In this document: positions 7,654 to 35,619 of the stretch, piece after piece
Numbering within the stretch: the first letter of the stretch is position 1
Layout of the letters: each line of letters opens with the position of its first letter
DNA from: a candidate division FCPU426 bacterium
GTDB lineage: Bacteria; Oederibacteriota; Muellerivitia; Muellerivitales; Muellerivitaceae
Assembly (NCBI GenBank): GCA_963796105.1
Contig: CAWCKJ010000004.1
Span: 1,216,001-1,280,000, forward strand
Reading direction: 5' to 3'
Length of the DNA: 64,000 nt
The notes under the pieces: model-generated
The model's database searches: none
Told to the model about the DNA's origin: nothing
The model's input: only the letters and a program-made list of their open reading frames with translations
Made by a program: the position numbers and the translations under genes

Positions 7654-10600
7654 ATGGTGTTGAAAAATTTCTTAAAAAGAAACAATTTTCAGTCTTTCCA
7701 CGCCGTCCACTTCCGCGGGATGGTTCCCATTCTCTTGTTCGCCCTATTGTCCCTGCCTTCTTCTTTATTATCCCAAACCTATACGTGGAGCAACGTTACG
7801 GTGCCTGCCGGGGGATTTGTGGCAGGCATTGATTACAGCCCCGTTTCCCAGGGTCTTCTTTACGCCCGCACCGACATGGGCGGTTTTTACCGTTGGGATA
7901 ACACTAACAGTGTCTGGATCCCCTTAACCGACATGTACGGGACCAGCCAATACACTTATTTCGGCGGGGAAAGCATCGCCCCCGATCCCAAGAACGGCAA
8001 TGTGGTCTACGCCGCGGCGGGAATGTATGAGACAAACGGCGACGGCGTCATCCTCAGTTCCACCAACCAAGGCAACAGTTGGACCGTCAACACCATCGCC
8101 GTTTCCATGGGAGGGAACAACGACGGGCGCGAGGCCGGGGAACGCCTGGCGGTGGATCCCAACCTGACCTCCACCCTTTATTTTGCCTCCCGTAGCCAGG
8201 GTCTTTGGAAAAGCACCAACACCGCGGCAAGCTGGGCTCAAATTTCCTTCCCTGTAAACGGCGACGCCGGGTACGGCCTGAGTTACGTTATCTTCGACAC
8301 CCACGGCACTTCCGGCACGGCTTCCGCGACCATCTATGTCGGGGTGGATGCCATGAACTCAGGGAACAGCAATCTCTACCGGTCCACGAACGCCGGCTCC
8401 AGTTGGACCCTCATCACCGGCGGCCCCACCAACATGATCACTCCCCACGCCTCCCTCGGAACCGACGGAACTTTGTGGGTCGTTTATGACAGCGGCGGAT
8501 ACGGCCCCAACAACATCACCACCGGGCAGGTTTGGAAGCTGAACACAGCCACCCTGGCCTGGACGAATGTCACCCCGCCGGGCCCAGCCGGCGGAAGCGG
8601 AGGTTACGGCGGGATTTGCGTGGACTCGGAAAGCGTCAGCCATGTGGTGGTTTCCACCCTGGATTGGTGGGGCGGGCCGGACAAAATCTTCAATACCACA
8701 AACGCCGGGAGCGCATGGACCACCATCGGAAACGAGAACGTCGGTTGGAACGCGGCTCCTTTCGCCACGTACAACCTCAACAGCGCTGAATGGACCCTTT
8801 TCTGCGGAACCAACGCTGGAGGAACTGGCTGGCAGGGGGATGTCAAGATCGACCCCTTCAATTCCAACAACGCCATCTACACGACGGGCGGCGGGGTTTG
8901 GAGCAGCACGGATATCCTCAACGCCACGACGTCCGCCATCACCTGGACCTTCACCGACTACGGCCTGGAAGAAACCGCGGTGACGGACATGATCACTTCG
9001 GCGCCCGGCGGGATTTTTTTCAGCGCTTTCGGCGATATCGGCGGTATGCGCCATCCCAACCTGACACAATCCCCCTCGCTTGGAATGTACTGTACCCCCG
9101 AATTCACCAATACGAACGGCATCGATTTCGCCGAATCCGCCCCCAATACGCTGGTGCGGGTTGGAAACTCGGGCGCCATCACGACGGACGGCGCCTACTC
9201 GACGAATAACGGCCAGTCGTGGACCGCCATGGCGACCCTTCCGGAAACGGCGTATAACGAAATGCAATCCGTGGCCATTTCCGCGAACGGTCTAACGATA
9301 TTAGCGGTTCCCTACAGTGGGCATGGGAATCCCAGTTATTCCAGTAATTTCGGCTCCAGTTGGACGGCCAGTTCGGGTCTTCCCGCGGGGGCCCAAATCG
9401 CCTCGGACAGGGTTGATTCGAATATTTTCTACGGCCTTTCCGGCACGACCCTTTATGTCAGCACCAACGGCGGGTCCAGCTTCTCCAGCGCGGGGACCTA
9501 CGCGGGAAGCATCTCTTGGGATAACCGGCCCCGGCCCGTTTTTGGGATCGCCGGAGAAGTTTGGGTGCCAACCAGTACCGGCCTTTATCGTTTCACGAAT
9601 GTGGGCCTTGGCACGGTCACCACCACCCAAATCGCGAATGTTTCCAACGCCATCAATGTGGGTTTCGGCAAAGCCGACACCGGCTACACCCACCCGGCGG
9701 TATACCTGGTTGGGACAGTGAGCGGAACTTACGGTTTCTTCCGTTGCGACGACGGGGTCGGCACCACTTGGACCCGCATCAATGACGCCAACCACCAGTT
9801 CGGCGCCGCTGAGTTCGCCGCGGGGGATGAGACAGTTTACGGGCGGATGTACGTTGGGACGAACGGCCGGGGCATACTTCACGGTGATATCTCCACTTCA
9901 GGCAACACCCCGACATTTACCTTTACCCCGACCCGGACTTTTTCCCCTACAGCAACAGGCACTTCAACCTATACCCGTACCAACACTCCGACCAGCACGC
10001 TCACGAATACTCCCACCAGAACTTTTTCCCCCACGGCGACTTTGACCAGCACCCCCACCAGGACTTTCACCCCGACATCCACCATCACGAACACTCAAAC
10101 CAACACTTCGACGAATACCAGGACGAATACGCCGACTAACACTTCCACCCCAACGCCGACCCTGACTTCCACTAATACCCGGACTAATACCCCGACTTAT
10201 TCAGTAACCAACACTCCCACAAATACCGCGACTAGCACCCCTACCCCGTCGCGGACGAACACCCCCACCAACACTTCTACCAATACGGCAACTTTCACCC
10301 CCACCCCGACCAGGACAAATACACCGACTAATACAGCCACGGCAACCCTGACGAACACCTCCACCAACACTGCCACCTATTCGACGACATCCACGTTCAC
10401 CCCAACCCGAACGAATACCGCCACCAATACCCCTACAGCCACATTGACGAATAGCCCTACCAACACCGCCACGTATACAGCGACACCCACTTCCACTCCG
10501 ACAAGGACAAACACATCCACCAATACGGTGACATTTACTCCCTCAAATACCCAAACAAATACAGCTACACCTTCAGCTACGCAAACTCCAACCCAAACAC

Positions 10601-13038
10601 GAACAAATACTCCGACCAATACAGTGACATCCACACCCACGAATTCCCTGACTAACACAGCTACGAATACGACGACACCTACGTCATCGCCTACGCTCAC
10701 CGCTTCGCCTTCGGCAACGCCAACTCCAACTCAAACCCGCACAAACACTTCTACCAATACGGTCACTCCAACCCAAACACGAACGAATACTCCAGCCAAT
10801 ACAGTGACATCCACGCCTACGAATTCCCCGACTAACACCGCCACAGCTACCCTGACGAACACCGCTACCTATACATCCACTAATACAGCGACATCTACTT
10901 CAACCCCAACTAGGTCTAATACTCCGACCAATACAGCGACAGCCACTCCAACCAGGACAAATACATCGACCAATACTGTGACATCCACATTTACGAGTAC
11001 CTTGACCAACACTAGCACGAATACGGCGACCGCCACTCCCACCCCGACCAGGACCAACACCCTCACCAATACGCCGACTCCGACGAACACGAATACGCTG
11101 ACAGCGACAACTACCGCGACCAGCACCTACACGGGGACCGCATCCCCCACGAATACCTCCACGATTACTCCAACCAGGACATCGACACCTACCTCGACGA
11201 ATACCTCGACTTCCACGGCAACATACACTCCAACCAATACTTCCACGAGCACCGCCACCTTTACCAGGACCAACACCCCCACCAATACGCCGACTCCGAC
11301 GAGCACGAATACGCCGACGGTGACACCTACCGCGACCAATACCAACACAGGGACCACATCCCCCACGAATTCCCCCACTATTACTCCAACCAGGACCTCG
11401 ACTCCCACCTCGACGAATACTTCGACATCCACCCCAACCCCCACAGCGACGAACACCTCTACCATTACGCCGACAAGGACAGCTACTCCAACATCCACAA
11501 ATACCTTGACTTCCACGGCAACATACACTCCAACCAATACTTCCACGAGCACCGCCACCTATACCAGGACCAACACCCCCACCAATACGCCGACTCCGAC
11601 GAACACGAATACGCCGACAACGACACCTACCGCGACCAGCACTAACACGGGGACCCCCTCTCCCACAAACACGCCGACGGTCACATCCACCAACACGTTC
11701 ACCCACACGCCTACGAATACTTCCACCTCTTCCCCGACTCCAACAGTGACGAATACGTCCACTAGCACGCCTACGGCCACGCCGACTAGTACATCCACAG
11801 CCACTCAAACCCCCACCCACAGCGCGACAGCCTCCCAAACTCCAACACCTTCTTCGACATCAACTGAAACACCCACGAGTACCGCTACCTATACCAGGAC
11901 CAATACCCCCACCTATACCTCGACTTCGACGAACACGAATGCGCCGACGGTGACACCCACCGCGACCAATACCAACACAGGGACCACATCCCCCACGAAT
12001 TCCCCCACTATTACTCTAACCAGGACCTCCACTCCCACCCCGACGAATACTTCAACATCTACTTCGACCCCAACAGAGACGAATACATCCACAAATACAC
12101 CAACATCAACGCAGACACCCACGTTCACAACCACCAACACGCTCACTCAAACCCCTACCAACAGCCCGACAACCACCCGGACTCCTACGGCTACCTTAAC
12201 CTCAACTGGAACACCCACTGGCACGCCCACCTCAACCAATACTTCGACCTTCACCCCAACCGCGACAATGACTAACTCTTCCACTTACACACTCACGGTG
12301 ACTCTGACTAGCACGCCAACCTTAACATCCACAAATACCCCATCGAATACGGCGACATCCACATCAACCAATACTTCAACGAATACCCCCACTTCCACCC
12401 TGACGAATACGTTAACTAGCACACAGACGATTACCCCGACGGAGACATCTACGTTCACCAATACTTATACAGGGACTCAGTCGCCCACGAATACGCCCAC
12501 TCTTACGCCCACGCCGACTAACACACCTACTAAAACACCCACATCCTCCAATACCCCGACCCCCACGCCTACCAACACGCCTACGCCGACTCTTTCTGCG
12601 ACACTCACCGCCACCACGACGGTCACGAACACGATGACCGTTTCGGCTTCGCCAACACCGACTTTGACACCTACACCGTCCCCCACTACCACCCCCACGA
12701 GTACTTCGACGAACACTCCTATAGCTACCTTGACGGAAACCGCGACACCGGTTGGGAGAAATGGCGTGGTGGTTTATCCCAACCCGGTGAAAGGCCCGGG
12801 CCCTGTGACGATTCAGATCACCTTGACGCAAGAGGAACCGGTCGTTCGGGTTGAGATATTCACGACAGCTTTCAGGAAGGTGAATGAGATTGATCGCTAC
12901 CAGGTACCGGCGGGAGTGATCCTTGTGCCCATCCCCCTGTCGGACAAGGCGGGGATGCCCTTGGCTAACGGGCTTTATTACGTGGTGGTTCAAACGCCCC
13001 AGAAACGCATGATTACCAAACTAATAGTTCTGAGATGA
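7654..13038 (+). CDS. GH74 xyloglucanase-like enzyme + ~950-aa Thr-X stalk + T9SS-like CTD
   Basis: YARTDMGG and GDIGG catalytic Asp motifs, [26 protein letters not shown]...LANGLYYV...KLIVLR. Confidence 0.9.
9901..12750 (+). repeat. Coding Thr-X low-complexity repeat (stalk/linker)
   Basis: Thr at almost every second residue for ~950 aa. Confidence 0.9.
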
Positions 13039-13090
13039 AGGCTTTCAGCAACTTCACCATCAAATCAACCAAATAATCGAAAGTTTTCAA

Positions 13091-13176
13091 GCCCCTGGTC
13101 GGAACCGGTCTGGCTGAATGATTTCGAGATCGACGGCTCCATGTTCCTTGACGACGACGGCAAGGCGGAATTGATC
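13091..13176 (+). pseudogene. Orphan ~85-bp fragment of a GH43 gene
   Basis: Reads PWSEPVWLNDFEIDGSMFLDDDGK, matching PWSEPVWLDDYGIDGSMFFDDDGK at ~38778-38851. Confidence 0.75.
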
Positions 13177-13566
13177 GTGGCTGGGCGGGGGATTAGGATA
13201 AGGGAAAGAAATGGGGAGTGTGGAACTAGGCGCTTATTTCCATTACCCTGTCCCCATTAAGCTAACCCAAACTGGCTTCAATGGAATGACCCCAACATGG
13301 AAAGAATCGTATCTTCATGGGCCTTACCCGCAATGCGCATGACTTTACATTTCCTGGTTTGAAACTCCTAAATCCCTGGTTTTGAAAGAAAGTCCTGCCC
13401 GCAGGGGTCGGAACCCTTACCCGAGGGAACATTGGTATAAAGGAGAGGGCTCTGGAGTAAGAAAAACCTAATATTTCAAGCGAATTTGGGCTCATCAATA
13501 AAAACGCTACCAACAATATAATGGGAATAAAGCGGCCACTCAAAAGGCTAATCTTAAGGAGGGTAT

Positions 13567-14130
13567 TTGGACGACCGGGAGTTGGTTCGGAAAATCCTCC
13601 AGGGGGATGAACAGGCCAAAACCCAGTTCTATCTCCAGCACAAGGAACGCCTTTACAAGGATAGCGTTTATCTGCTTGGTTACCGGGATCCGGAAGCGGA
13701 AGATTTGGTCCAGGAAACTTTCATGATCGCTTTCAAAAAGCTGCCGGAATTCGAGTTTCGGTCGGCTTTGGGAACCTGGCTCATGCAGATTTGCATTTTC
13801 CTTTGCTACAACCGGTACCGCAACAGGGAAAAGACGGTCGCGCGGGAAGAGGAGGAACTGGAAAATCTTTTACGCCCCAAGTCCCTTGAGGAGGCGGAGC
13901 GAAATTCCCGGGAAGATGACAAAACAATGAAACTCTGGTTGATCGACCAGGCTTTGGGGAAAATCGGGCCGGAATGCCGGGAGGTCGTGATCTTGAGGGA
14001 TAAGGAAGGAAAAACCTACATCGAGATCGGCAAGTTATTGAGGATTCCCCTGGGCACGGTGATGTCCCGGTTATCACGTTGTAAAAAGGCCCTTAAGGTT
14101 TTAATCGAACACATGATTCGGGAAGGTTGA
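13567..14130 (+). CDS. ECF RNA polymerase sigma factor
   Basis: AEDLVQETF, TWLMQI (region 2); EIGKLLRIPLGTVMSRLSR (region 4); RBS AAGGAGG, TTG start. Confidence 0.92.
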   Translation: MDDRELVRKILQGDEQAKTQFYLQHKERLYKDSVYLLGYRDPEAEDLVQETFMIAFKKLPEFEFRSALGTWLMQICIFLCYNRYRNREKTVAREEEELENLLRPKSLEEAERNSREDDKTMKLWLIDQALGKIGPECREVVILRDKEGKTYIEIGKLLRIPLGTVMSRLSRCKKALKVLIEHMIREG

Positions 14131-14131
14131 A

Positions 14132-14788
14132 ATGGCGGATTTAATCAAGAAATTTTTCGAGCGCGAGTTAAGCGGGTCCGAGGCGGACTCGTTGGGAAAC
14201 CTATTGAAGGAATCTCCCGACGATGCCTTGCGTTTCGAGAAGTTTTTAGAGGAACATTACCTGGCGACGGGGCTGCCATCCCCACAAGCGCCCCCCTCGC
14301 TTCAAAACCTTCCCGGGGTTCCGGGCGGCCTTGGCATTTCTGGTTTGAAACTTTTCGCGCTGTTGATCGCCGCGGGGATAGGCGTCCTAGCCTGGAAATT
14401 CTGGCCCGCTCCCGAGGCAGCCTCCCCCAAGGCCGCTTTGGCGCCGGTGGTACCGGTTTCGGAACTTCCGGCGAGGAAAATAACGCAATTCCTTCCCGAC
14501 GAGGCCAAGCCGTCTCCTGTCCCCGCCCAAAAAGCCGGCCCGATGGCGGAAGGGAATGAGCTTAGCGTGGTGGTGGAAGCGAAGGAAAAAGCCCTCGTGA
14601 CGGTGCGCGTCCTTGACGGACAGGGCGGGGAAATCCGCGATCTTTTTACCGGCTTCGTCCAGCCGGGCCGTTGGGCTTTCAAATGGGACGGAATCCTGAA
14701 CGGCGGCCAGCCCGCCCCCTCGGGGGATTACCAAATCGACGTTCAAACCGGCTCACTGCACCAGCACAAGAGCGTCCGAGTCAAATAA
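14132..14788 (+). CDS. Putative membrane anti-sigma factor with extracytoplasmic FlgD-Ig/CTD-like domain
   Basis: Starts 1 bp after the sigma stop; short N-terminal helical domain, one TM segment (FALLIAAGIGVLAWKFW), Pro-rich linker, WDG...APSGDYQI Ig motif. Confidence 0.7.
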   Translation: MADLIKKFFERELSGSEADSLGNLLKESPDDALRFEKFLEEHYLATGLPSPQAPPSLQNLPGVPGGLGISGLKLFALLIAAGIGVLAWKFWPAPEAASPKAALAPVVPVSELPARKITQFLPDEAKPSPVPAQKAGPMAEGNELSVVVEAKEKALVTVRVLDGQGGEIRDLFTGFVQPGRWAFKWDGILNGGQPAPSGDYQIDVQTGSLHQHKSVRVK

Positions 14789-14856
14789 TGATTGGCCCAT
14801 CGGGCATAAGTCCGTTCGCGCGTGACAGGTTTTAAGCGACGAAGTAATATAAATAG

Positions 14857-16299
14857 ATGACGATGATTGATTACTTTAAAAATCGTTTCCTGATATTCGC
14901 GTTCTTCCTTCTCCTCGCCAGCTGGGCCTTTCCCGCCTTCGCCCAATACAACGGGGACGGGCTCCAGGCCGTTTACTACAACAACCCCAACCTCACCGGC
15001 GCCGCCGTCTCCGAGGTGGACCCCAATATCAGCTACCGTTGGGGAACCTGCCCACCCCAACCGGGAATGCCGGTCTCCGGCTTCTCGGTGAAATGGACCG
15101 GCCAAATCGAGCCCTCTTACAGCGAGCCCTATACTTTCACGACCGACGTGACGGGCGGGGTGAGTGTCATTGTCAACGGCACTGCGGTGATCAGCGGCTG
15201 GACGGATGGAATCTTCCGGGGAATCACGGGAAACATCCCCTTGACGGCGGGGGTGAAGGTTCCCTTGGAGGTTGATTATTTTTTTGGGGGGGCGGTCACG
15301 AATTCCTCGTTCATCCAATTTGCATGGCAAAGCCCCTCCCAGGCTAATGTCATGGTACCCCGGGCTTTTCTGTTTTCAGGCAATCCGCTTCAGCCCACCC
15401 CCACCCCCCAATCCGCCTCGGCCTGCCAATCCAGCCCCACCGTGGACGGGGTCTTGAGCGAATGGGCCTGGAGCCCTCCACCGCCCTGGAACATGGTGAA
15501 TAAGACCGTCCTGGGCGATGCCTTCGGCGCGAGCGCCCAGTTCAAGGCCCTGTGGGATATGACCAACCTCTATCTTGGCGTGACCGTCACCGACAGCCAG
15601 CCCACCAACAACGGGGACCCGGATCTTTTTGAAAACTCGACAGTGGAGCTTTACCTGGACACCACCGACTCCAGGAGCGTCACGGTCACCAGCAACAATT
15701 TCCAATATTTCTTCAGGTGGAACGACTCGGCGGCCGTCGAGTCCCGCGGGAGGACCGCCGGAGTGAGCCTGCGCACGACGACGATACCGGCAGGCTATGT
15801 GGTGGAGGCTTCCATCCCCTGGTCCACCCTGGGACTAGGGTATCCCAATCCCGGACTGGTACTGGGCTTCGACGTAGGCGTGGACGTGAACCACAACGGG
15901 GGGAACTGCCGGGATGGGCAGTTGATGTGGAACGGAGGAAGCGACAATTACGAGAACGCGAGCGGTTACGGCAACTTGACCCTGGGAACGGCCTGCCCCA
16001 CACCCGCCTCCACCCCGCCCGCGCCCATGAACCCCTATGTGGCTCCCAACCCCTCGAACGGAACCTCGGTGAAGTTCGTCTACGAGATGGCCGAGGCGGG
16101 TACGGCCGACATCAAGGTTTGGAACGCCTGGGGTAACTTGTGCGCGGCGATCCACGATGCCCAACCCCAGGGGCTCGCTTCCAGCGTCCTGGATGTCAGT
16201 TCCTTCGCGCCCGGCCATTATTTCTACCGGGTGGTTTTGAATTACCCATCGGGCCGGCAGGATAAATACCAAACACAAGTTATGGCGATTAAGAAATGA
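14857..16299 (+). CDS. Secreted non-catalytic PA14 + CBM9-like protein with T9SS-like CTD
   Basis: GLQAVYYNN..FSVKWTGQI (PA14); TVDGVLSEW, LWDMTNLYLGV, YVVEASIPW, GFDV (CBM9_1); APNP...APGHYFY CTD. Confidence 0.8.
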   Translation: MTMIDYFKNRFLIFAFFLLLASWAFPAFAQYNGDGLQAVYYNNPNLTGAAVSEVDPNISYRWGTCPPQPGMPVSGFSVKWTGQIEPSYSEPYTFTTDVTGGVSVIVNGTAVISGWTDGIFRGITGNIPLTAGVKVPLEVDYFFGGAVTNSSFIQFAWQSPSQANVMVPRAFLFSGNPLQPTPTPQSASACQSSPTVDGVLSEWAWSPPPPWNMVNKTVLGDAFGASAQFKALWDMTNLYLGVTVTDSQPTNNGDPDLFENSTVELYLDTTDSRSVTVTSNNFQYFFRWNDSAAVESRGRTAGVSLRTTTIPAGYVVEASIPWSTLGLGYPNPGLVLGFDVGVDVNHNGGNCRDGQLMWNGGSDNYENASGYGNLTLGTACPTPASTPPAPMNPYVAPNPSNGTSVKFVYEMAEAGTADIKVWNAWGNLCAAIHDAQPQGLASSVLDVSSFAPGHYFYRVVLNYPSGRQDKYQTQVMAIKK

Positions 16300-17603
16300 A
16301 GACATTCCCTAGGCGCGGTTGGCGCCTATGTCTCCTCGCCTTTCTGGGAGCCATTGTTGTTATCGGGGTCAACCCCGGATATTCCCAGGCGTCCGCCTCC
16401 AACGCCGGGCTGGTTACCCCCTTGACCGCTTTGGGCGCCTCGGCCCGGACGGATGCATTGGGGTCGGCCTTTACGGGCGTCGCGGACGATCCTTCCGCGT
16501 TGTTTTTTAACAGTGCGGGACTCGCGGGCCTGGACCACGCCCAGCTCAGCCTCAACCACAACAGCTACCTGGGAGGAGCCTTCGAGGAAACCCTCCTCCT
16601 CGGGCTTCCCGCCGGCAATGGGGGCGGCTTCGCGGGGGCGGTCCAGTATGTTTTCTGGGGCAGCCTGGACGCGCGCGACACCTCGGGCGTCCAGGAGGGG
16701 ACATTCAGCGACAATGACGTGGCATTGAGTTTTGGATGGGCCAGGGAATGGGCCAAGGGTTTTTCCCTGGGCGTGGCCCTTCATGGCACCCAGCAAAAGG
16801 TGATGGATTCGATTTATAGCAGCTTCTCGGGAGACCTGGGGGCTCTGTGGGTCCCCGCCCCGGATTGGCGCCTGGGTTTGGCTTACTCGGGTTTGGGAAC
16901 GCCGGTCGCGGGCCAAAGCCTGGCTACCGATCTCAAGGGCGGATTTTCCTACCGGTTTAAATTGAGCAGGGTTGACAGCCTGTTAACGGCCTTTTCGGGA
17001 TTCTATGAACCCAACGGTGTCAGCCGGCTCCAGGGCGGGGTGGAAGCGGCGTTCCAAAAGAACTACTTCCTGCGCGTGGGTTACCAATTGCCGTTATCCG
17101 ACAACCAAATCATGGGTTTCGACAATTTCACCGCGGGTGCGGGCATCCGCTTGGGCGCCCTGATCCTCGACTATGCCTTTGTTCCCTATGGGGACCTGGG
17201 AACCTCCCACCGGATCAGCCTCTCTTATGATTTCCCCAACCCCACCCCGGTGCCGGCCAAGAGCGTCACGGTGGTGCTGACACCCATCCCCACTCCCATG
17301 CCGACGGCCGCCCCCTCTCTTTCCAAATCATCCGTGGAGGTGCGTTTTGAACTTCCCCTGGGAACTACGGTGGAGGTTACGAGCCCCGAAATCAGGACCC
17401 AGGTGGAACAATACGAAAAGGCCGCCGAAGCCAATCCTCACGACGCCACGGCCTGGCGGAATTTGGGGGTGGTTTATTGGAAGACAGGGCGGCAGGACCT
17501 GGCCCAGCAAAGTTTTGAGCAGGCGCTTCGGTTAAACCCCTCAGACACCAAGCTGAAGGCCTGGCTCGACCAGCACCAGGCAAACCAACCCGCGATTAGG
17601 TAA
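16296..17603 (+). CDS. PorV/PorQ-like outer-membrane beta-barrel with C-terminal TPR
   Basis: GASARTDALGSAFTGVADDPSALFFNSAGL N-terminus, FLRVGY, LDYAFVPYGDLGTSHRISL barrel end; TPR AWRNLGVVY...FEQALRLNP. Confidence 0.8.
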   Translation: MKTFPRRGWRLCLLAFLGAIVVIGVNPGYSQASASNAGLVTPLTALGASARTDALGSAFTGVADDPSALFFNSAGLAGLDHAQLSLNHNSYLGGAFEETLLLGLPAGNGGGFAGAVQYVFWGSLDARDTSGVQEGTFSDNDVALSFGWAREWAKGFSLGVALHGTQQKVMDSIYSSFSGDLGALWVPAPDWRLGLAYSGLGTPVAGQSLATDLKGGFSYRFKLSRVDSLLTAFSGFYEPNGVSRLQGGVEAAFQKNYFLRVGYQLPLSDNQIMGFDNFTAGAGIRLGALILDYAFVPYGDLGTSHRISLSYDFPNPTPVPAKSVTVVLTPIPTPMPTAAPSLSKSSVEVRFELPLGTTVEVTSPEIRTQVEQYEKAAEANPHDATAWRNLGVVYWKTGRQDLAQQSFEQALRLNPSDTKLKAWLDQHQANQPAIR

Positions 17604-17803
17604 AAGGTTTTAACTCTCCGATAAAAACCAACGGTCTTTTCATTGGTTTTTCGTTTCACCGAGATTTTTATTTTATTTTAGGGAATAAACTCCCATCCCC
17701 CCAACACAAATCCTTTGGACGGGTATGTGTTCACGCCTGAAAGCGGGAACGACTGTCCGGGGTCGTTTAAGGCCCCAACATAAGACAATTTGAGGGGGAC
17801 ACC

Positions 17804-20800: not shown

Positions 20801-20833
20801 ACCGCCACGTTTAAACTTTTGATTCTGAAATGA
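17804..20833 (+). CDS. GH30 xylanase-like enzyme + malectin + PT linker + CBM3 + T9SS-like CTD
   Basis: WSPPA, SIQNEP, WETE, YSKFIRPGY; malectin WRVNAGG; CBM3 VTVRYWF..RFNKSDWSNFTQSEDWSY..LVWGQEP; AYPNP CTD. Confidence 0.87.
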   Translation: MKGRHFSLKRYIPVIGTLFLWVLTLGFSWAGTCTVDATQTNQYIHCIGASSAWSAIGSMGQALFAEDNVNGHIGISSLRARIDPNNSFSSEVNQLATAHSVNSNVLLWATEWSPPAQYKANNNVDGGSSNDTFLGASSGSPNSADTGLASYQVSFIQYCQSHGAPLYALSIQNEPNFNPTYEACLWTAGQFDVYANAFHSALQSAGLSTKIMLPEPDNTGGMNLASTAMDDSTVAPMIGIIGTHLYGSPDPAPLSSYGFTHVTNQEWWETEMSGNSTDIPGALQEAGWIHNSLVNSNMNAFHYWWLTDLISGSSFTIKAYALGNYSKFIRPGYYRMGATAVPSSGVSVSAFKNTNTSSPQTIVFVAINGNSSSVNQTFSFNGVNVTSVTPWVTDSSNNLVAKSPVAVSGGSFTYSLTSSSITSFVGVVSGGTPVPTATPTFTPTPIVSSTWRVNAGGPAYTGTTGLLWAADENYSGGSTAAEGGAVTGTSDSTLYDTQRYGSNFSYSFNVPAGAYQVTLKFAETYSGDFANGDRVFNVAINGTTVLANLDVYSQVGANTADDKVINNVSPSGGVITIQFTGTSSADTSAMVEAIQVIPQPATPTSTFTPTLTRTGTPTFTATPAVTNTATFTRTNTAIPPTATNTNSPVPPTITNTPAPPTVTNTPAPPTATGTNTPVPPTATSTNSPVPPTITNTPAPPTVTNTPAPPTATSTRTNTPVPPTATPTAVVSGASFEVQLLSSVTSATTNSPHPQIQIVNTGSGPLSLNSVTVRYWFNCDCTTQTIQAWVDWAGLVPSGSTVSSNVKVSSQSTTLGGQTSYILYSFSGNMVLQPGQAIQVQSRFNKSDWSNFTQSEDWSYAANTSYANDSKATGYVNGALVWGQEPSGTAASMSVSNVAVQTPAAGQGLSVKAYPNPSAGNGVNLSVTLPGNGGGVSASVMAKVYTLEGRLVWSTAMPASSSGSSGNRAVYWNEKDLSGNNLANGLYVVAVVVKSQGKTNTATFKLLILK

Positions 20834-21050
20834 AGGTTTTTACAAACAGTTGAAGTAGTCCCCGGATAACCTCCTGGGGTACGTGAAAGTCACGCCAGTG
20901 AAAAAAAGAGTTTCCTGGCTGGGACTGAAGCGCTCCCCTGGAGGTTTTTGGGTTTCAGAACAGCGGATAAAGAAATACTACATAGAGTCAGAGCAGGTTG
21001 AATAAAAGTCTTTCCAAACGGGTTGAAAAGAAAATTTTAAGGAGTCGTGG

Positions 21051-23783: not shown

Positions 23784-23837
23784 ATATCCTTAGGCCAAAT
23801 TGAGGTTTTAGACGGACCCAGCCTCATCTTGTAAGAT

Positions 23838-25679: not shown

Positions 25680-25785
25680 GGTAAAAGTATAAACAGATAG
25701 TTTGTTTTTTATAAATCATCCGTCTTCCCCTTGCGGTACCTTTACGAGGATCTCCGGCTTTCCAGGCTGACACCTCAGGGGTACT

Positions 25786-28700
25786 ATGCGGTTGATTCGA
25801 GTTAAAAACGATTTTCTTTCCAGGCCTATTCCTGAAAGGGTTTTCAGGCCCCTCCTCTGCGCCGCGCTCGCCTTTTTCGCCACCAGCTCATTTGTTTACG
25901 GGCAGTCTTATACTTGGAAAAACGTCGTGACGCCCGCGGGCGGTACCATCACGGGAATCGCCTACAGCCGGGCTTTGCAGGGCCTTATCTACGCACGTAC
26001 GGACATGGGCGGGGCCTATCGTTGGGACAACACCAACAATGTCTGGGTCCCCTTGACCGATTGGCTGGGCGATTGGAACCTCTACGGCATCGAGAGCATC
26101 GCGCCCGATCCCGTCAACTCCAACGTGGTTTACGCGGCCATCGGCCAAACCTATTCAGGAACGACCGGCTACGTCATCGCGTCCTCTAACCAGGGCGCTA
26201 GTTGGACCCAATATTCCATCCCGGTTTCCATCGGCGCCAACAACGGCGGCAACGATGCGGGGGAAAGGCTGGCGGTCGACCCCAACCTTACTTCTATCCT
26301 GTATTTCGGAACGCGGTACAACGGCCTTTGGAAAAGCACCAACTCGGCCGCTAGTTGGAGCCAGGTGACTTCCTTCCCGGTGAACGGCGACTCAGGCTAC
26401 GGGCTTTCCTGGGTCCTCTTCGACACCCACGGCACTTCGGGTTCGGCCTCGGCGACGATCTACGTCGGGGTCGAAGCGACCAATTCGGGCAACAGCAACG
26501 TATATCGTTCCACGAACGGCGGAACCAGTTGGGCCGTTATTCCGGGCGGGCCAACCTCCATGATCACCATCCAGGGCTCCCTGGGGACCGACGGGAACCT
26601 TTGGATGAGCTACGACGACAGCAACAGTTACGGAACCGGTCAGATATGGAAGCTCAACTCCAGCACGCTGGCCTGGACCAACGTGACCCCTTCTAACGGT
26701 CCCGGGAGCGGCAGCGGCGGTTACAGTGGGGTCTGCGTGGACGCTGAGAACGCCAACCACGCCGTGGTCTCCACCATGGATTGGTGGGGCGGGCCCGACA
26801 AGGGATTCCAAACCACCAACGGCGGGACTTCCTGGAACGTCATTACAAACGTGCAAAACAGTTGGGATGCGGGCCCTTACGCCAACTACAACAACAATGG
26901 GGTGACTTGGACCCGTTTTTGCAGCACCTATGACGGCGGGGCCTGGTACATGAACTGCATCAGGATCGACCCTTTCAATTCCAACAACGCCGTCTACACG
27001 ACGGGGGGAGGTCTCTGGACCACGACGAATGTCGAAGCCTCATCCCAACCTGCGGGCGTCACCTGGACCTTCACGGACTACGGGATCGAGCAGACCGCGG
27101 TCCTGTTCCTCAACGCATCCTCCATGCCCGGGACCTTCTTCAGCGCCTTGGGAGACATCACCGGAATGAGGTATACCGACCTCACCAAGCCCGCCAGCAA
27201 CATGTACTGCAACCCCCATGTCGGGAATTCCAACTGCCTCGATTTCGCCGAGTTGAACGTGAACGACGTGGTGCGGGTGGGGGCCAGCGGAGCGGTGACG
27301 ACCGACGCGGCCTATTCCGCCAACAACGGACAGTCCTGGACGCCCTGGACCAACACCCCCCCGGGCTACACCACGGACAACGAGATGGGCTCCGTGGCGA
27401 TTTCCGCCGACGGTTCCCACGTGGTCGTGTCGCCCCAAAACGGGTACGGGTCACCGGCTTACGCCTCCTCCCTCGGCGGCGCCTGGACCACCTGTACCGG
27501 CCTTCCCAGCGGAGCCATGCTGGCCTCCGACCGGGCCAATGCCTCCACGATCTACGCCACCAGCGGAAGCACCCTCTACGTCAGCGCTAATTACGGGGCC
27601 AGCTTCAGCACGGTCAACAGCTTTTCAGGGAGCGGTGCCCCCCGGGCGGTTTTCGGGGTGGCCGGGGAAGTCTGGGTGGCCACGGGCAGCGGTCTTTACC
27701 GCTTTACCAACGCGGGGTCCACCCTGGCCACCATTTCCAACGTCACTTCCTCCAACTCGGTGGGGTTCGGCAAGGCCGCCGGCGGCCAGACCCATCCGGC
27801 GGTCTATCTGACGGGCACCTACAATGGGACCTACGGGTTTTACCGATGCGACGACGGGGTAGGGACAACTTGGACGCGAATCAACGACAATAACCACCAA
27901 TACGGTTATGGAGCCTGGTGCGAAGGGGACGAGGCCATCTATGGTCGGGTCTATGTCGGCACGAACGGCCGCGGGGTTGTCTATGGGGACATGCTGGCGA
28001 CCACGCCGACCATCACCCCCACAATGACCAGGACGTTCACCCCCGCCAATACGCCGACGCCAACCTCCACCGCGACCCGGACGAATACTTTTACCAGCAC
28101 CTCCACAAGTACCGCGACGGCCACTCTTACCCCGACCAGGACGAATACATTAACTTATACAGCCACGAATACGACAACCTACACATCGACCGCCACTCGA
28201 ACGAACACCGCCACCAGCACAGCCACTAATACGGCTACTTTTTCCTCTACCTCGACAAGGACTAATACGCCGACTAATACGGTAACATCCACACCCACGA
28301 ATTCTCCAACCAACACTGTCACGAATACGGCGACGGCCACACCAACTCCAACTAGGACGAATTCACCCACCTATACAGTCACGCTTACACCCACGAATAC
28401 TCCGACTAGCACCTCCACGAGCACGGCAACAGCCACACCCACCGCGACCCGGACGAACACGCCGACGGCTTCGAGTACGACGACTCCTACGTCGTCTCCT
28501 ACATTTACCTCTTCGCCAACACCTACCCCCACAACCACCCCCACGAATACGCCGACAAGAACCCTAACTCCTACCCCCACTTCCACACCCACCCCTACCC
28601 CAACCTCCACCAATAGCCCCACATCCACCCCAACCAGGACCCCCACTCCCACCCCGACGACAACCCCTACTCCCACACCAACCAATACTTTAACCCCCAC

Positions 28701-30936
28701 TCCCACCCGTACGCCTACACCCACTCCGACGACAACTCCTACTTCCACGCCCACCAATAGCCCTACCCTTACACCCACGAATAGCCCGACATCCACCCCG
28801 AGCAGGACGCCTACTCCAACCCCTAGTCCAACCCCTACCAACACCCCCACTTCCACCCCCACGCCAACACCAACAACCACCTCTACTGCTACCCCGACTC
28901 CGAGCCCTACTGCCACCCCCACCAGGACGCCTACCCCAACCCCCACGAATACGCCAACGTCTACCCCCAGCCCAACACCCACTATGACTCCCACGCCTAC
29001 TCCGACAAGCACCCCGACCAGAACGCCAACTACGACGCCCACGCCGACTAATACTTCCACCCCTACGATTACTCCCACTCCCACCCCAAGCCCAACAGGG
29101 ACTCAGTCGCCAACAAATACACCTACCATTACCCCGACCAGGACACCTACTCCAACACCCACCAATACTCCGACAGTCACACCGACGTCCACTCCGACTT
29201 CCACCCCAACGAGGACTCCGACTCCCACCGCAACCCCCACCCCCACTTTGACGCCCACGTCTACTCTCACCCCAACACCCACCCTGACACCAACTCCCAC
29301 GCCGACTTCCACCCCGACTAGGACCCCAACCCCAACGCCGACTAGCACCCCTACTCTAACCCCAACAGCGACACCTACTTCCACATCAACCTCAACACCT
29401 TCGGCTACTCCAACTAATACGCCCACCAGGACCCCCACCCCTACGCTAACCTCAACACCTACCCTGACCCCGACATCAACTCCCACCAATACCTCAACTT
29501 CCACACCTACTCCTACCAGGACTTATACGCCCACCACCACGCCTACCCCGACGTCGACTCCTACGCCTACTATTACTCCGACTCCTACGAACAGCCCGAC
29601 TGGGACCCAGTCACCCACGAATACACCTACCATTACCCCTACCAAAACCTCAACCCCTACCCCCACGAATACCCCGACTGTGACCCCTACCCCAACACCC
29701 ACCAATACGCCGACTCAAACCCCCACGCCCACGTCTACATCTACCCCAACCAGAACACCTACCCCCACCCCTACGAACACTTCCACGATGACTCCGACAG
29801 CGACTCCCACTAATACCTCAACATCAACGCCAACCTATACGTCAACTAGTACCCCGACGAGGACGCCTACCCCAACAGCTACCAATACCTCTACATCAAC
29901 CCCCACGGCGACATCGACTCCTACACCCACGATTACCCCTACCCCCACGAACAGCCCGACTGGGACGCAGTCACCCACGAACACTCCGACCATTACCCCC
30001 ACCAAAACCCCAACACCTACCCCCACGAATACCCCGACTGCGACCCCTACATTCACGCCCAGCAACACCCCGACAAACACATCCACTTCAACCCCGACGG
30101 CAACGCCCACCTACACCCCGACTGCGACGTCAACATTTACCCCCACCAGTACCCCGACGAGGACGCCAACTCCGACAGCTACCAGCACCTCTACATCAAC
30201 ACCCACCCCGACTCCCACGAATACACCCACCGTCACGCCGACCCCGACTTCTAGCCCGACAGGAACCCAATCACCCACCAATACCCCAACCAATACGCCC
30301 ACATTTACGGCTACGCCTACTTCCACGAATACACCGACTTCCACGTCTACCCCGACTAATACTTCCACCCCTACCGCTACCCCAACTGCCACTTCTACGG
30401 ATACAGCGAGTTACACCCTGACACCGACAATGACTGATACCCCAACCCCGACACCGACCTGGACCTACACTCCCATGTTCACTTCGACATTCAGCTACAC
30501 CCCGACTTCTACCTCTACACCCACTGACACTTCCACCGACACCGCTACCTTCACGCCTACGGACACTCCAACGTCGACATCGACTCCTACGCCGACAGTT
30601 GCTTGGACTAGCACCGCTACTGCTACTTCGACAGGGACCGCGACTCCGGTTGGGAAAGATGAAGTGGTGGTTTATCCCAACCCAGTGAAAGGTCCGGGCC
30701 CTGTAACGATTCAGATTACCTTGAAGCAAGAGGAACCGGTCGTTCGGGTTGAGATATTCACGACAGCTTTTAGAAAGGTGAATGAGATTGATCGCTACCA
30801 AGTACCGGCGGGAGTGACCCTTTTGCCCATCCCCCTAACGGACAAGGAGGGAATACCTTTGGCCAATGGCCTTTATTACGTTGTTGTCCAAACGTCCAAG
30901 GAACGCCTCGTCGCAAAACTCCTCGTTTTGAGGTAA
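25786..30936 (+). CDS. Second GH74 xyloglucanase-like enzyme + ~880-aa Thr-X stalk + T9SS-like CTD
   Basis: [33 protein letters not shown] nearly identical to that of 7654..13038. Confidence 0.9.
28000..30650 (+). repeat. Coding Thr-X/Thr-Pro repeat (stalk)
   Basis: Thr at alternating residues; recurring [13 protein letters not shown] landmark. Confidence 0.9.
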
Positions 30937-31071: not shown

Positions 31072-34000
31072 ATGTTCCGCTATTTTCCTGAAACCGGTTT
31101 AAATCGTTTTCTTCATCCATGGTCAAGCCGGTTTTGCACCGTTTTATTGTTAGCGGTCCTTGGCTGGATATCCCCATCCTATATAAAAGCGCAATGCACC
31201 GTAACAAGCGCCAATCTGGACACCAGCGTCGACGACGACATCCTCATCTACCTTAACGGCAATGTGATTGTTTCCCAACCGAGCGACTGCAACTGGTGGA
31301 CGTCCGTCCATTCCTATGCCATCACCAACCTTTCCTGGTTCAATACGTCGGGGGAGAACATACTGGCGGTATACGCCACTGACCAATGCGGTAACACGGC
31401 GTGGGCCACATGGCTGCTGACCATCAACTATTCCAACTGCCCCACCCAATACATCATGAGCGACGGCTGGTGCACACGGACAGTCAATTCGGGGATCACC
31501 TACACGGGCTCAGGCCTGCCGCCCACAGGACTGCCTTCCGGATGGACGGGTACGGGATTCCCCGACAGCGCCTGGGGGGGCGTCTACACGGGGGATGTCC
31601 GCGTCATCCGTAATTGTTCCAACTGCGCCGCCATCACGAATACTGGGACGGGGTTGGTCGTGCCTCACATTTGGGGCGACAATAATTTCGCGCCTTCCTA
31701 CTCCGGCGAAGGTTACCTCTTCCGGCAGCACTTTTACACGGGTTCGGCGGCGTGCACCGTCACACCGGCTCCGAGCCCCACCTTTCCCCCGACCAACACG
31801 CTCAGCCCTACGCCGACAATTGGCTCACCCACCCCGACCTTCACCCCTTGGCCGGGCTGCAATAGCCCCGGGATCACCTCTCCCATGCTGAACCTTCAGA
31901 CGTCCTGTTATAACCAGAACAACCAATATATGGATTATGGTTTCCGGGTATACAACTGGGGCGCCACCCCCGTCACCATCGCCAACCTATGCGTCAAGGC
32001 TTGGGCCTATGAATCCCAAACCATCAACATGGCGCAGCTCAACAACTCGGCTGGAACCACCTGCACAGCGGGTGGAGCCTCCTGCGGGAACATCGGCATC
32101 ACCGGCACGGTATCCGTGGCTTCCTACGGCCCCTGCACGCAAATATCAGGTCATTACGCAAACCAGATGATCACTTACTGTTTTTCCCCGACCTCCACGG
32201 CTTACGTCATCCCGCCGAACGGGGGCTACTGGTATGTCCAATACGACATGCTGCGGTTCGGGCGCAACAACTCGCAAATGGACAACGGCAACTTTTCCGA
32301 CGACTGGTCGCATTTCGGGACCGGCAACGGTGATTGTTCCTCCAATTCCTCAAACCAGGAAAACCCATTTTTCGCGCTTTATTACAATGGAACCCTGGTA
32401 CGGGAACAGTTGGATACTTCGGGGACCAACTTTGACACCGCCACCGGGATGGAGCCGTGCATGGTCCTTCTGACTTGCACCCCGACCCCAGGAATAACCA
32501 ATACCCCTACACGGACGCCCACCTTCACGCCCACCAATACCATGACCCGGACCCCGACCAATACCCCGACGAACACCCCCACCATTACGCCTTCCCCTAC
32601 CCCCACACCGACCCGGACACCTACACCCTCGTCGACCCCGACATTCAGCCCGACGCCTACCCCGACTCCCACCAGGACCCCGACTCTCACACCCTCACCC
32701 ACGCCTTCCCCGACTCCAACCCCCACGACGACACCCACGCCTACCCCGACCAGGACGCCCACACCCACCCCCACGAATACCCCGACACCGACACCAACCA
32801 CTACCCCAACACCCACCCCGACCCGGACACCTACGCCGACACCCACTCCGACACCCTCGCCTACGCCTACCCCGACCTTGACTCCCACGCCCACGCCTTC
32901 GCCCACTCCGACCAGGACCCCGACGCCTACGCCCTCACCCACCCCTACGCCCACCCCGACCCCGACAAGGACGCCGACTCCCACGCCGACAACCACCCCC
33001 ACCCCCACTCCGACCAATACACTTACTCCGACACCTACCAATACGCCGACTCCAACCCCGACCAGAACCCCAACGAATACTCCTACTCCGACTCCCACAA
33101 ATACACCCACGAACACGCCCACCCCCACACCAACGACGACCCCGACTCCGACGCCGACTAATACTCCCACAAGGACTCCGACTCCCACGCCAACCCCTAC
33201 CCCCACCCCGACTCCCACACCTACCATTACCCCGACCCCAACGAACACGCCTACAGGGACCCAATCACCCACGAACACGCCCACCATCACCCCGACCAAG
33301 ACGCCAACACCGACTCCTACCAATACGCCCACCATTACACCCACGCCCACGCCCACCATTACACCCACGCCCACGCCAACCAATACCCCCACGAGGACGC
33401 CAACACCTACCCCGACTCCGACCCCGACAACCACCCCAACCCCCACACCCACCAATACCCTGACACCCACCCCGACCAACACCCCCACGCCCACCCCCAC
33501 CACGACGCCGACACCCACTCCAACAAGGACACCCACTCCCACGCCTACCAATACGCCTACTCCCACTCCAACCACCACCGCTACCCCGACACCTACGAAC
33601 ACCCCGACCCCCACACCCACGAGGACGCCGACTCCCACGCCGACAACCACCCCAACCCCCACACCCACCAATACCCCGACACCCACTCCCACGAACACGC
33701 CCAGCCCTACCCCGACCACGACACCCACCCCAACGCCGACCAACACCCCCACAAGAACACCCACCCACACTCCGACGCCCACACCCACGATCACCCCGAC
33801 TCCTACCAACACTCCGACTCCCACCATCACGCCCACGCCGACGAACACGCCCACGGGAACTCAGCCGCCCACGAACACTCCCACCATTACTCCCACCAAG
33901 ACCCCGACGCCTACTCCCACCCCGACCCCGACTGTGACACCCACTCCCACACCCACGAATACGCCCACGTCCACCCCGACCAACACCCCGACTCCCACAC

Positions 34001-35619
34001 CCACCACGACTCCCACCCCGACTCCTACTTCCACGCCGACTAGGACTCCGACCCCCACCCCCACTCCGACTTCCACGACCACATCCACTCCCACGCCGAC
34101 GAACACGCCCACTTCCACCCCGACCAACACCTCGACCCCCACCCCGACCCTGACGCCCTCGCCGACGCCGACGCATACCCCCACAAACACACCCACTTCC
34201 ACACCGACCCCAACGCCAACGATCACTTCGACCCCGACATACACCTCAACTGGAACGACATCACCCACGAATACCTTCACCGTCACGCCGACGTTAACGC
34301 CTTCGCCAACGCCCACGGATACACCCACGAAAACACCCACGAGCACCCCGACACCCACGCCTACCACAACCTCTACTCCCACATTCACCTCCACCCCCAC
34401 CTCGACGCCGACGAACACCCCGACCAATACCCCGACCACCACACCCACACCCACCTACACCAACAGCTCAACCGACACTCCTACTTGGACCTACACGCCT
34501 TTATTCACTTCGACAAACTCCTACACCCCAACGAATACACCCACTCCCACGAATACTTTCACTCCCACTGACACCCCGACCCCCACACCCACGCCGACAC
34601 CGACCTATACTCCCACTTCAACCAACACCCCGACATCCACGCCCACGGATACACAGACCCTGACACCCACCTTGACCCCGACAGATACATCCACCTATAC
34701 GCCAGTATTCACCTTTACCCCCAGCTACACGCCTACGAACACTTCCACACCCACGAATACCTATACCCCCACGAACACCCCGACCAGCACACTCACTCCG
34801 ACACCAACCAACACGCCCACCAACAGCAATACACCCACGAATACAAATACCCCGACGAACACGAATACGCCGACAAACACCTACACCGCCACCAATACCC
34901 CGACGAACACCAATTCCCCCACGAACACGCCTACCCCGACGCTGACCCGGACGCCTACCAACACCTTTACGGCCACGAACACCCCAACCGCCACCTTCAC
35001 ACCCACTAATACCAACACTCCGACGCCTAGCTACACCCCGACGAACACCTATACCCCCACGAATACCAGGACTTCAACCAACACTCCTACAGCCACCTAT
35101 ACCCCCACGAACACCCCCACGTACACCTTCACCCGGACATACACTCTGACCCCGACCCTGACCAATACCAGGACCTCAACGTCCACTCCCACCTTCAGCC
35201 GCACACCGACGTCCACGCGCACCCCTACGCCGACGAAAACCAACACGCCCATTTGGACATCCACTCCCACGGCGACCTTCACGCCCACGGAAACGTCCTC
35301 GATGACACAGATCCCGACCTGGACGCCGACGGTGGATTACTTCACGGTGACGAAGAACGTGTTCAAGGAAGGGGGGGAGCCGGTATCCATCTTCGTGGGG
35401 ACGAGCCAATATCCCGGACCCTTCCAGTTGTCCGTTTACAACTCGGCGGGGGAGCATATCAAGACCCTGGACAGCCGGTACCTGGAGGCGCCATTCCAAG
35501 GCAGTTTCTTCTGGGACGGGACGAACAAGTACGGGGATACCTGCGCCAGCGGGGTTTATATTTTCTACCTAGTGGAACCCTTCGACCGCAAAGTGAAGAA
35601 GATCATTTTTATTAAGTGA
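31072..35619 (+). CDS. Large surface protein: Cys-rich lectin/jelly-roll + CBM3-like domains, ~950-aa TP stalk, FlgD-Ig-type CTD
   Basis: ORF is open from 30955, but ATG 31072 has a GGAG RBS and precedes a signal peptide; [21 protein letters not shown]3-like [37 protein letters not shown] tail. Confidence 0.7.
32476..35330 (+). repeat. Coding Thr-Pro repeat (stalk)
   Basis: TPTPT runs with synonymous codon variation. Confidence 0.9.

Follow-up and report, generated by a model that had tools for sequence, protein, structure and literature searches.

The window analysed here, a 64,000-nucleotide (nt) stretch of the genome of a candidate division FCPU426 bacterium (positions 1,216,001 to 1,280,000 of contig CAWCKJ010000004.1, assembly GCA_963796105.1), carries a 42 kb hemicellulose cluster (window positions 671-42663) in which nearly every gene is hemicellulose-related and all but one lie on the + strand. 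Six of the encoded proteins, designated A to F, end in related domains that resemble the export tails of type IX secretion system (T9SS) substrates, and among their genes lies a four-gene unit coding for an extracytoplasmic function (ECF) sigma factor, an anti-sigma-like protein, a tailed lectin (protein B), and a barrel of the PorV/PorQ family. The explanation proposed for the whole, to which we give an even chance of being right, is that the cluster specifies tailed surface hemicellulases exported through a reduced SprA/PorV-type pathway, together with a sensor unit formed by the lectin and the barrel. This unit may be viewed as a sensor with the logic of a polysaccharide utilization locus (PUL) that is built from T9SS parts.

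A first-pass annotation, made from the sequence alone, had listed six secreted proteins with T9SS-like or FlgD-Ig endings, and this part of it held up well: open reading frames (ORFs) are present at the six starts, all on the + strand; their N-termini, judged by eye from the sequence, are signal-peptide-like in all six; and alignment identified a related C-terminal domain of ~85 residues, of the FlgD-Ig or T9SS type-A-like kind, in each. Protein A (7654..13038) has a GH74 xyloglucanase head (aa ~40-745; 6p2m_A, E 6.7e-146), a stalk of 959 aa that is 47% Thr (aa 747-1705, nt 9892-12768), and the tail. Protein E (25786..30936) repeats this design with a second GH74 head, a paralogue of that of protein A as found by phmmer with the latter, an 888-aa stalk (nt 27994-30657), and a tail 83% identical to A's. 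Protein C (17804..20833) carries a XynC-like GH30 head (NF052681, 2.1e-49, below the model cut-off) followed by malectin (5.8e-27), a 112-aa linker, a family 3 carbohydrate-binding module (CBM_3, 2.4e-12), and the tail, and protein D (21051..23783) a GH62 arabinofuranosidase (1.3e-56) followed by malectin, linker, CBM3, and a tail scoring 21.4 bits on Por_Secre_tail. Protein B (14857..16299) joins PA14 (1.1e-14) and CBM9_1 (7.7e-33) domains into a lectin that leads directly into its tail. Protein F (31072..35619, the start being an internal Met, 39 codons into the longest frame, which opens at 30955) consists of a Cys-rich beta-sandwich, a CBM3-like domain, a Thr/Pro stalk of 956 aa (nt 32467-35334), and the tail. 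A catalytic domain was not recognised in it, sequence searches of the PDB and the Atlas returned no match, and only 10 homologues were found. Its structural model is of low confidence (pLDDT 59.5), and the better half, the only part of the model that is usable, resembles CBM3a (1nbc_A, TMt 0.71), a likeness by which F may be a CBM3-like binder.

The description of the enzymes as stalked, also made in the first-pass annotation, stands for A, E, and F, to which the giant stalks (47-49% Thr) are restricted, but not for C and D, whose internal linkers are ~115 residues long, nor for B, which has none. The DNA of the stalks is imperfectly repetitive (63-80% matches) and is therefore taken as coding sequence of low complexity rather than an assembly artefact, and since the orthologous GH74 proteins of relatives are 1200-1333 aa long, the length of the stalk appears to be variable.

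The four-gene unit begins with the ECF sigma factor (13567..14130, +; 187 aa; Sigma70_r2 and r4_2, TIGR02937 81.6 bits), and the gene for the anti-sigma-like protein (14132..14788, +) starts 2 nt after it. The latter protein comprises a conserved N-terminal 45 aa, one hydrophobic segment (aa ~70-92), a Pro-rich linker, and a C-terminal FlgD-Ig domain (aa ~137-218; FlgD_ig 6.1e-10), a seventh copy of the Ig domain beyond the six that had been listed. Among 31 close homologues the N-terminus, the hydrophobic segment, and the Ig domain are kept and the linker is variable; the putative anti-sigma activity is read from gene position only. An alignment made with the idea that this Ig domain mimics the tail of the cognate lectin showed no special likeness. 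Next come protein B and, overlapping its stop codon (gap -3), the gene for the barrel (16296..17603, +), which ends in C-terminal tetratricopeptide repeats (TPR). The barrel scores 113.5 bits on the PorV/PorQ family model NF033709 (cut-off 90) and stays below both equivalog models (PorV, 37 vs 250 bits; PorQ, 90.5 vs 220); it is a member of the family and an orthologue of neither PorV nor PorQ. Its AlphaFold2 model (pLDDT 81) displays 14 strands (aa 82-313), a disordered linker in which a VEVxFE motif is conserved, and four helices that make up two TPR repeats, and the nearest folds retrieved by Foldseek are PorV (8gl6_F, 4.5e-14; 6h3i_F), then FadL and TodX. The unit has no Plug domain or TonB-dependent receptor; the PorV-family barrel with its TPR tail occupies that place.

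This four-gene arrangement recurs. It is found three times in the genome, in the window and twice on contig 12, and in a tree of the 18 paralogous barrels the three sigma-linked ones form one clade (SH-aLRT 92, by a quick method and not starred). All five relatives examined, from four genera, possess an orthologous unit; in four of them the PA14-CBM9 protein is kept, and those four units are followed by tailed GH30, GH62, or GH74 genes. A wider survey covered 41 barrel-plus-TPR genes at 40 loci in 20 genomes, picked for matches covering the TPR tail: an adjacent same-strand tailed gene accompanies 37, an ECF sigma gene lies within 6 kb of 32, and 30 have the sigma gene followed by an Ig-ended gene, the exceptions coming mostly from other families of the phylum. 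The tailed partner ranges from 107 to 1756 aa across the surveyed units. A literature search, supplements left aside, found no paper tying a PorV-like barrel to an anti-sigma factor. Two further observations concern barrel homologues. In G051, a genome of the same genus, the best match to the window barrel is 34% identical, when other genera of the family have orthologues at 55-75%; the orthologous unit of G051 may be missing or unassembled. A metagenome protein of 604 aa (P0051), homologous to barrel and TPR, includes CBM9 in its Pfam list and is perhaps a fusion of lectin and barrel, or else an artefact of gene calling.

The PorV-like barrel gene that the first-pass annotation had seen among the cargo genes is thus indeed a member of that family with a PorV-like fold, but the role given to it, as the shuttle for all six cargoes, was not supported. 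An ordinary T9SS-like display system, in which this barrel serves every tailed protein and the sigma pair is merely a neighbouring regulator, is possible though unlikely. It would account for the family and fold of the barrel, for its position encircled by six cargo genes, and for the presence of an SprA-like pore. The barrel gene, however, overlaps one cargo gene only, to which it appears translationally coupled inside the sigma/anti-sigma unit, and nine other barrels likewise each have their own cargo: 10 of the 18 barrel genes in the genome start -27 to +1 nt from the stop of a same-strand tailed gene, and an 11th barrel gene comes second in a tandem pair of such genes, when ~0.5 such abutments are expected from a random draw of 122 tailed genes out of ~4300 (the estimated gene number of the genome), a 20-fold excess. 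The barrel, with its conserved TPR tail, moves, moreover, as a block with sigma, anti-sigma, and lectin, in three copies here and many in relatives, with varied cargo beside them. Finally, its 37 bits fall far below the 250 of the PorV equivalog model, and the PorV family is matched better by a shorter paralogue (C3:696909-697763, 175 bits).

A role of the unit in regulation is suggested by a promoter-like box, composed of GGAATAAA and then CAC..ATC or CTAATC 14-16 nt on. One copy, GGAATAAA-N16-CTAAT (13524..13552, +), lies 43 nt before the sigma gene, a spacing kept in most orthologues, and the second, GGAATAAA-N15-CACAAATC (17682..17712, +), lies 122 nt before the GH30 gene. These two matches in the window compare with 0.02 expected, and they contain the only exact + strand copies of GGAATAAA within 671-42663. 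In all five orthologous loci a box separates the barrel gene from the first enzyme gene (in one of them the sequence is GGAATAGA), as it does in both paralogous loci examined, and a box precedes 12 of 40 module sigma genes, compared with 0.016 expected per 150 nt. This distribution fits an autoregulated ECF sigma factor that would also drive the GH30 and GH62 genes. A scan of 12900-26000 for sigma-70 promoter and terminator consensus sequences gave nothing above shuffles. The GH74 genes A and E, for their part, are each paired with an AraC-type regulator, one of 609 aa encoded divergently from gene A (5666..7495, -; HTH_18 2.5e-19) and one of 613 aa directly before gene E (23838..25679, +; HTH_18 1.1e-22), and their upstream regions have other motifs in common. 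Outside the cluster, five exact GGAATAAA words, probably compositional, fall inside the stretch 51548-56261, which encodes two paralogues of ~740 aa, each with a domain like spermidine synthase close to the C-terminus (51548-53767, - and 54015-56261, -).

The same arrangement could be a co-regulated cargo/carrier pair under an ECF sigma factor of the envelope-stress type, the anti-sigma protein sensing secretion load or misfolded tails rather than a glycan, a possibility that we regard as quite unlikely. The sensor domain of the anti-sigma protein is itself tail-like, the tailed protein in many paralogous units is only 107-161 aa and leaves no room for a lectin head, and the accessible part of one report describes an ECF sigma factor that controls T9SS genes in Porphyromonas gingivalis (PMC7712824). 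What speaks against a stress response is that the PA14-CBM9 lectin is kept in four of five relatives before xylan or xyloglucan enzymes, and that five of five orthologous loci have the sigma-type box upstream of their first enzyme gene; several units per genome with different heads also better fit substrate-specific switches.

The export pathway is argued from the tails and from the machinery. Against curated models, those of the T9SS type A sorting domain (TIGR04183, PF18962) among them, the six tails score unevenly: that of protein B alone passes TIGR04183 outright (25.2 bits, cut-off 23); those of C and D are borderline, with 15-16 bits by hmmscan and 24.8-25.0 when summed in the genome search; for A and E the scores are 21 bits with Por_Secre_tail and 25-26 with FlgD_ig (A singly 21.1 and 24.7), and F scores 25 bits on FlgD_ig with no Por_Secre_tail match, the Pfam cut-off being 27. 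A profile of the window tails matched, over the whole length, the C-terminal domain of PorU (6za2_A residues 1058-1154, E 3.6e-8) and also that of PorZ (5m11_A, 2.7e-4), with FlgD as the top match in the PDB and RgpB, the T9SS substrate tail in 8glk, and mirolase ranking lower; the tails of PorU and PorZ are, we presume, of the uncleaved, barrel-bound kind. The genome-wide count that the first-pass annotation had proposed was made with a home-built hidden Markov model (HMM) iterated on this genome, which found the domain in 127 ORFs and, in 122 of them, ending within 12 residues of the stop codon. These 122 tailed ORFs make up 8.9% of the genome's bases, 38 of them have Thr/Pro-rich stretches of ~800 residues or longer, and they share an ending of K/R, four hydrophobic residues, and R/K/H, with K or R at -6 in 101 of the 122. 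The occurrence of the domain in the six proteins and in the 122 ORFs is not due to chance. Among the matches listed for TIGR04183 in this genome, 47 of 60 exceed the cut-off, and every one of the 99 phylum genomes has a match to this model at E<=1e-6.

Two side observations bear on the tailed proteins. A Gln follows the likely signal-peptide cleavage site in five of the six, in the barrel, and in the GH5-like enzyme at the left end of the cluster (starts 7654, 14857, 21051, 25786, 31072, 16296, and 671), which resembles the 'Q-rule' of Bacteroidetes; a crude pattern, a hydrophobic run followed by [AGSC]Q, occurs in 64 of 122 tailed ORFs vs 180 of 2042 other long ORFs, these controls being mostly cytoplasmic and unsuitable. 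Four barrels have a FlgD-Ig or tail-like domain fused to them (C2:7380-9776, C3:425409-427589, C3:569354-571105, and C4:94315-96522), presumably in a periplasmic position.

The host of this machinery is not a member of Bacteroidota, as the first-pass annotation had suspected. Its assembly (4.98 Mb, 16 contigs, 96.8% complete) belongs to a phylum of only 99 species genomes in 23 families, a size that sets it apart from Bacteroidota, and the placement draws on phylum size together with gene content. DnaX is 53-69% identical to that of the closest relatives, the best named outsiders being metagenome-assembled genomes (MAGs) of Bacteroides (42%) and Bdellovibrionales (40%). A 2020-aa SprA-like frame shows four collinear model matches, the best at 116.7 bits (cut-off 200); such a frame is present in 92 of the 99 phylum genomes (58 of the 60 of good quality) and above the cut-off in 7. 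PorV-family barrels number 18 ORFs in this genome, 16 of them above the NCBIfam cut-off. By contrast with the SprA-like frame, the barrels, and the tails, which agree with the T9SS-like system envisaged at first, GldL, GldM, and GldN had no match in this genome (G000) or in two others of the phylum (G053, 99% complete; G032, 100%), with two Bacteroidota MAGs as positive controls both above cut-off, and GldK gave only generic 63-bit matches (cut-off 350) in frames of 276-535 aa to a model that also matches Bacillus and Caulobacter. The PorU model NF033707 matched 35 times, in every case inside positions 962-1095, which are the tail, and the PorU-type C25 peptidase (PF01364) was found in none of the 31 genomes of the family and in both controls. 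Elsewhere in the phylum, C25 domains occur in 8 of the 99 genomes (G021, G023, G027, G032, G033, G076, G096, and G098), in frames of 600-1700 aa. Because GldL, GldM, GldN, and a PorU-type C25 peptidase were not found, the machinery is an outer-membrane subset and not a T9SS by the Bacteroidota definition. One review assigns the T9SS to the Fibrobacteres-Chlorobi-Bacteroidetes (FCB) superphylum (PMC11205867), and a survey of complete genomes to Bacteroidetes only (bioRxiv 10.1101/031039).

Genes of the other well-known strategies were sought as well. The Pfam scan of the 30 window ORFs of at least 150 aa agrees with the earlier annotation in recognising no SusC/D, cohesin, dockerin, or ABC-transporter family, apart from one weak ABC_tran match inside an RsgA GTPase. 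SusD (PF07980) is found in 0 of the 99 phylum genomes, with a Bacteroides control positive, no SusC-type TIGR04056 match in the genome is above cut-off (best 76 vs 368 bits), and Dockerin_1 has no match in the genome, its control being positive; cohesin was looked for in the window ORFs only. A Bacteroidota genome with a canonical T9SS and PULs is accordingly not what was found. Two TonB-dependent receptor genes in the genome start just after tailed genes (C4:1151221-1155781 and C4:1420436-1423886), one of them matching the N-terminal part of the SusC model, and tailed gene plus receptor may be a second kind of cargo-barrel pairing.

That the tails are instead ordinary Ig domains of the FlgD type that play no part in export, the proteins leaving by another route such as type II secretion or vesicles and the barrels being FadL-type channels or structural, is quite improbable: A, E, and F do fall below the curated tail cut-offs, FlgD is the top PDB match, the domain also occurs in the periplasmic anti-sigma protein and fused to barrels, motor and sortase were not found, and after PorV the barrel is structurally closest to FadL and TodX, but 122 of 127 copies sit at the extreme C-terminus with a conserved K/R-hydrophobic-basic ending, B and 40-odd other ORFs among the matches listed pass TIGR04183, the PorU and PorZ tails are matched over their whole length, across the phylum tails are found together with an SprA-like pore and PorV-like barrels, and the stop/start overlap with barrel genes is 20-fold over expectation.

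Under the explanation that we favour, tailed hemicellulases with a reduced SprA/PorV-type pathway and a lectin-barrel sensor, the six proteins would be exported by Sec and then, it is predicted, pass through the SprA-like pore with the help of PorV-family carriers. With no sortase to remove them, the tails would likely stay on and hold the proteins to barrels at the cell surface, where the ~900-residue Thr/Pro stalks of A, E, and F would act as spacers that hold the heads far out, an extended stalk of 900 residues being estimated at 100-300 nm. The surface GH74, GH30, and GH62 enzymes, endo-acting and debranching, would cut xyloglucan and arabinoxylan, and the untailed exo-enzymes GH43 and GH127, perhaps with GH44 and GH5, would finish the oligosaccharides in the periplasm. 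The lectin of protein B would sit by its tail on its own barrel, as PorZ sits on PorQ. Binding of a xylan or xyloglucan end would be relayed via the periplasmic linker and TPR of the barrel to the Ig domain of the anti-sigma protein, and the sigma factor, once freed, would start transcription at GGAATAAA-type promoters, both of its own operon and of the GH30/GH62 genes. It is enticing to go further, tentatively, and to regard the unit as a possible new class of trans-envelope signalling, in which a carrier barrel and an exchangeable tail-bound head replace the TonB-dependent transducer and SusD, which would have multiplied (to three or more copies here and four or more in some relatives) into a set of substrate-specific switches that serve a family of an uncultured phylum, and whose stalked, surface-displayed enzymes would be exported by a motor-less SprA pathway.

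Several findings weigh against this scheme. With regard to export, the tails of A, E, and F lie under the cut-offs of the curated T9SS tail models, and the same Ig domain occurs where an export tag is impossible, in the anti-sigma protein and behind four PorV-like barrels. Genome G090 (99% complete) has tails and no SprA match. The release of a carrier-cargo complex from SprA is described, in the accessible part of a study of Flavobacterium, as an energy-requiring step driven by GldLM (PMC10994853), and as this motor was not found here, export through SprA would proceed without a known power source. There is one barrel gene for the six window cargoes and there are 18 for 122 genome-wide, which leaves most of the anchoring unexplained. 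An outer-membrane importer is not part of the cluster, and the genome's 12 Plug-domain receptors are all encoded outside the window. With regard to sensing, the barrel-plus-TPR genes of four other sampled families are without a sigma pair, and the box precedes only 12 of the 40 module sigma genes. A look for expression data on 13400-21400 listed no RNA run, the one match being a DNA run labelled soil metagenome with a 0.13 share of the words. A loose genome-wide version of the box was undiscriminating (33 matches, mostly not upstream of genes), and as it missed even the sigma gene's own box, no claim is made about a regulon.

Among the remaining genes of the cluster, five encode untailed enzymes with signal peptides: a GH5-like beta-mannanase (671..1756, +; PDB sequence matches 3vup_A, 2.7e-13, and 5y6t_A), separated by the RsgA GTPase gene from a GH127 beta-L-arabinofuranosidase with C-terminal malectin (3086..5560, +; PF07944 1.1e-125, Malectin 4e-22), a GH44 enzyme (35685..38324, +; 1.1e-51), and two enzymes composed of GH43, GH43_C2, and malectin (38375..40477, +, GH43 9.5e-90; 40522..42663, +, GH43 3.5e-88). 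Of the copies of these families that phmmer retrieves from the genome when queried with the window's domains, the cluster accounts for 2 of 4 in the case of GH74, for 1 of 2 each in the case of GH30 and GH127, and for all in the case of GH62 (a single copy) and GH43 (two copies). The malectin domain is internal in proteins C and D and terminal in the GH127 and both GH43 enzymes, which share near-identical C-terminal words, ...QNAKVCAIEVVR.. (5460-5560, 40380-40477, and 42570-42663). At its right-hand end the cluster is bounded by a tRNA-Asn gene (43578..43652, -), directly followed by two IS4-type transposase genes with DUF4372 (45011-46132, - and 46402-47571, +).

Three schemes serve today to explain how diderm bacteria break down plant polymers: SusC/D loci, cellulosomes, and a contact-dependent strategy, still poorly understood, that is used by Cytophaga and Fibrobacter. 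The present locus would place the third in another phylum. Of interest are the clear split between tailed surface enzymes and untailed exo-enzymes and the extreme ~900-residue spacers, and the candidate sensing unit would explain how the enzymes are induced where no SusC-type transducer is present. A pathway of tails, SprA, and PorV-type carriers with neither motor nor sortase raises a mechanistic question, as carrier release is a powered step in the current model. The tail, the stalk, the barrel, and the sigma factor with its promoter box are possible display and induction modules for enzyme engineering.

With respect to its sensing logic, the locus can be aligned with two kinds of known systems. 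In Bacteroides PULs, a SusC-like transducer, an anti-sigma factor, and an ECF sigma factor accomplish trans-envelope signalling, as do FecA, FecR, and FecI. The likeness lies in an outer-membrane barrel and a surface glycan binder encoded with an ECF sigma/anti-sigma pair before glycoside hydrolase (GH) genes. The differences lie in the parts: a 14-strand PorV/FadL-type barrel, with no import function evident, stands here in place of a 22-strand TonB-dependent receptor, a tail-anchored CBM9 lectin in place of the SusD lipoprotein, and the periplasmic domain of the anti-sigma protein is a FlgD-type Ig. The statement in the first-pass annotation that the system is distinct from PULs and cellulosomes therefore holds for its components, but not for its PUL-like logic, and precedents exist, e.g. 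in Fibrobacter succinogenes. In the second kind, several RsgI/SigI anti-sigma/sigma pairs of Clostridium thermocellum switch on plant-cell-wall enzymes by means of carbohydrate-binding modules; a structure search with the model of protein F listed PDB entries 4b9p, 4b97, and 4b9c, which are RsgI/SigI by title. That bacterium, however, has a single membrane and the binding module is inside the anti-sigma factor, whereas the lectin here is a separate outer-membrane protein, so the signal must cross the periplasm.

Closer relatives of the unit's parts are found among T9SS components. According to the accessible text of one report, PorA of P. gingivalis is a lectin-like protein whose tail binds PorV and which affects the ECF sigma factor SigP (PMC7712824). 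The PorA-PorV-PorXY-SigP chain has in common with the present unit a small lectin-like tailed surface protein, a barrel, and an ECF sigma factor, but its relay, as described there, is a two-component system, whereas here sigma and anti-sigma are encoded in the same unit. The barrel, moreover, is here a dedicated TPR-tailed paralogue, and the output is apparently hemicellulase rather than secretion genes. Type B T9SS cargoes, as the accessible part of another study relates, are released from the translocon bound to dedicated carrier barrels, by which they are subsequently anchored, the carrier gene adjoining the cargo gene (PMC10994853). As in these pairs, and in PorQ-PorZ and PorV-PorU, the cargo would be kept by an uncleaved tail on its own barrel; unlike the type B carriers of that account, those here are of the PorV/PorQ rather than the PorP family, the tails are type-A-like, and ten pairs occur in one genome.

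As for the display of enzymes, the accessible portions of three jointly cited reports (PMC7906972, PMC8564354, PMC5831590) describe a need for PorV and SprA in cellulose use by Cytophaga hutchinsonii and, in Cytophaga and 'Ca. Paraporphyromonas polyenzymogenes', tailed GHs without SusC/D-centred loci or cellulosomes, as in the present cluster. These organisms are Bacteroidota with a full T9SS, including the GldKLMN and PorU that were not found here. The nearest precedent outside Bacteroidota is F. succinogenes S85, in which, as far as the accessible text goes, GH5, GH8, GH10, GH30, and GH43 enzymes bear TIGR04183-type tails (BTD/Fpm-1), surface attachment was proposed, and neither PULs nor a cellulosome figure (PMC6851124). 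Fibrobacter belongs to another phylum, and mass-spectrometric data on it pointed to cleavage of the tails, whereas the PorU-type peptidase was not found in the present family; the same part of that report describes neither ~900-residue stalks nor a sigma-linked PorV-like unit. The locus combines two known kinds of systems, tail-dependent display of GHs and ECF-controlled polysaccharide loci, and within it the sigma-linked lectin-barrel unit holds the greatest interest.

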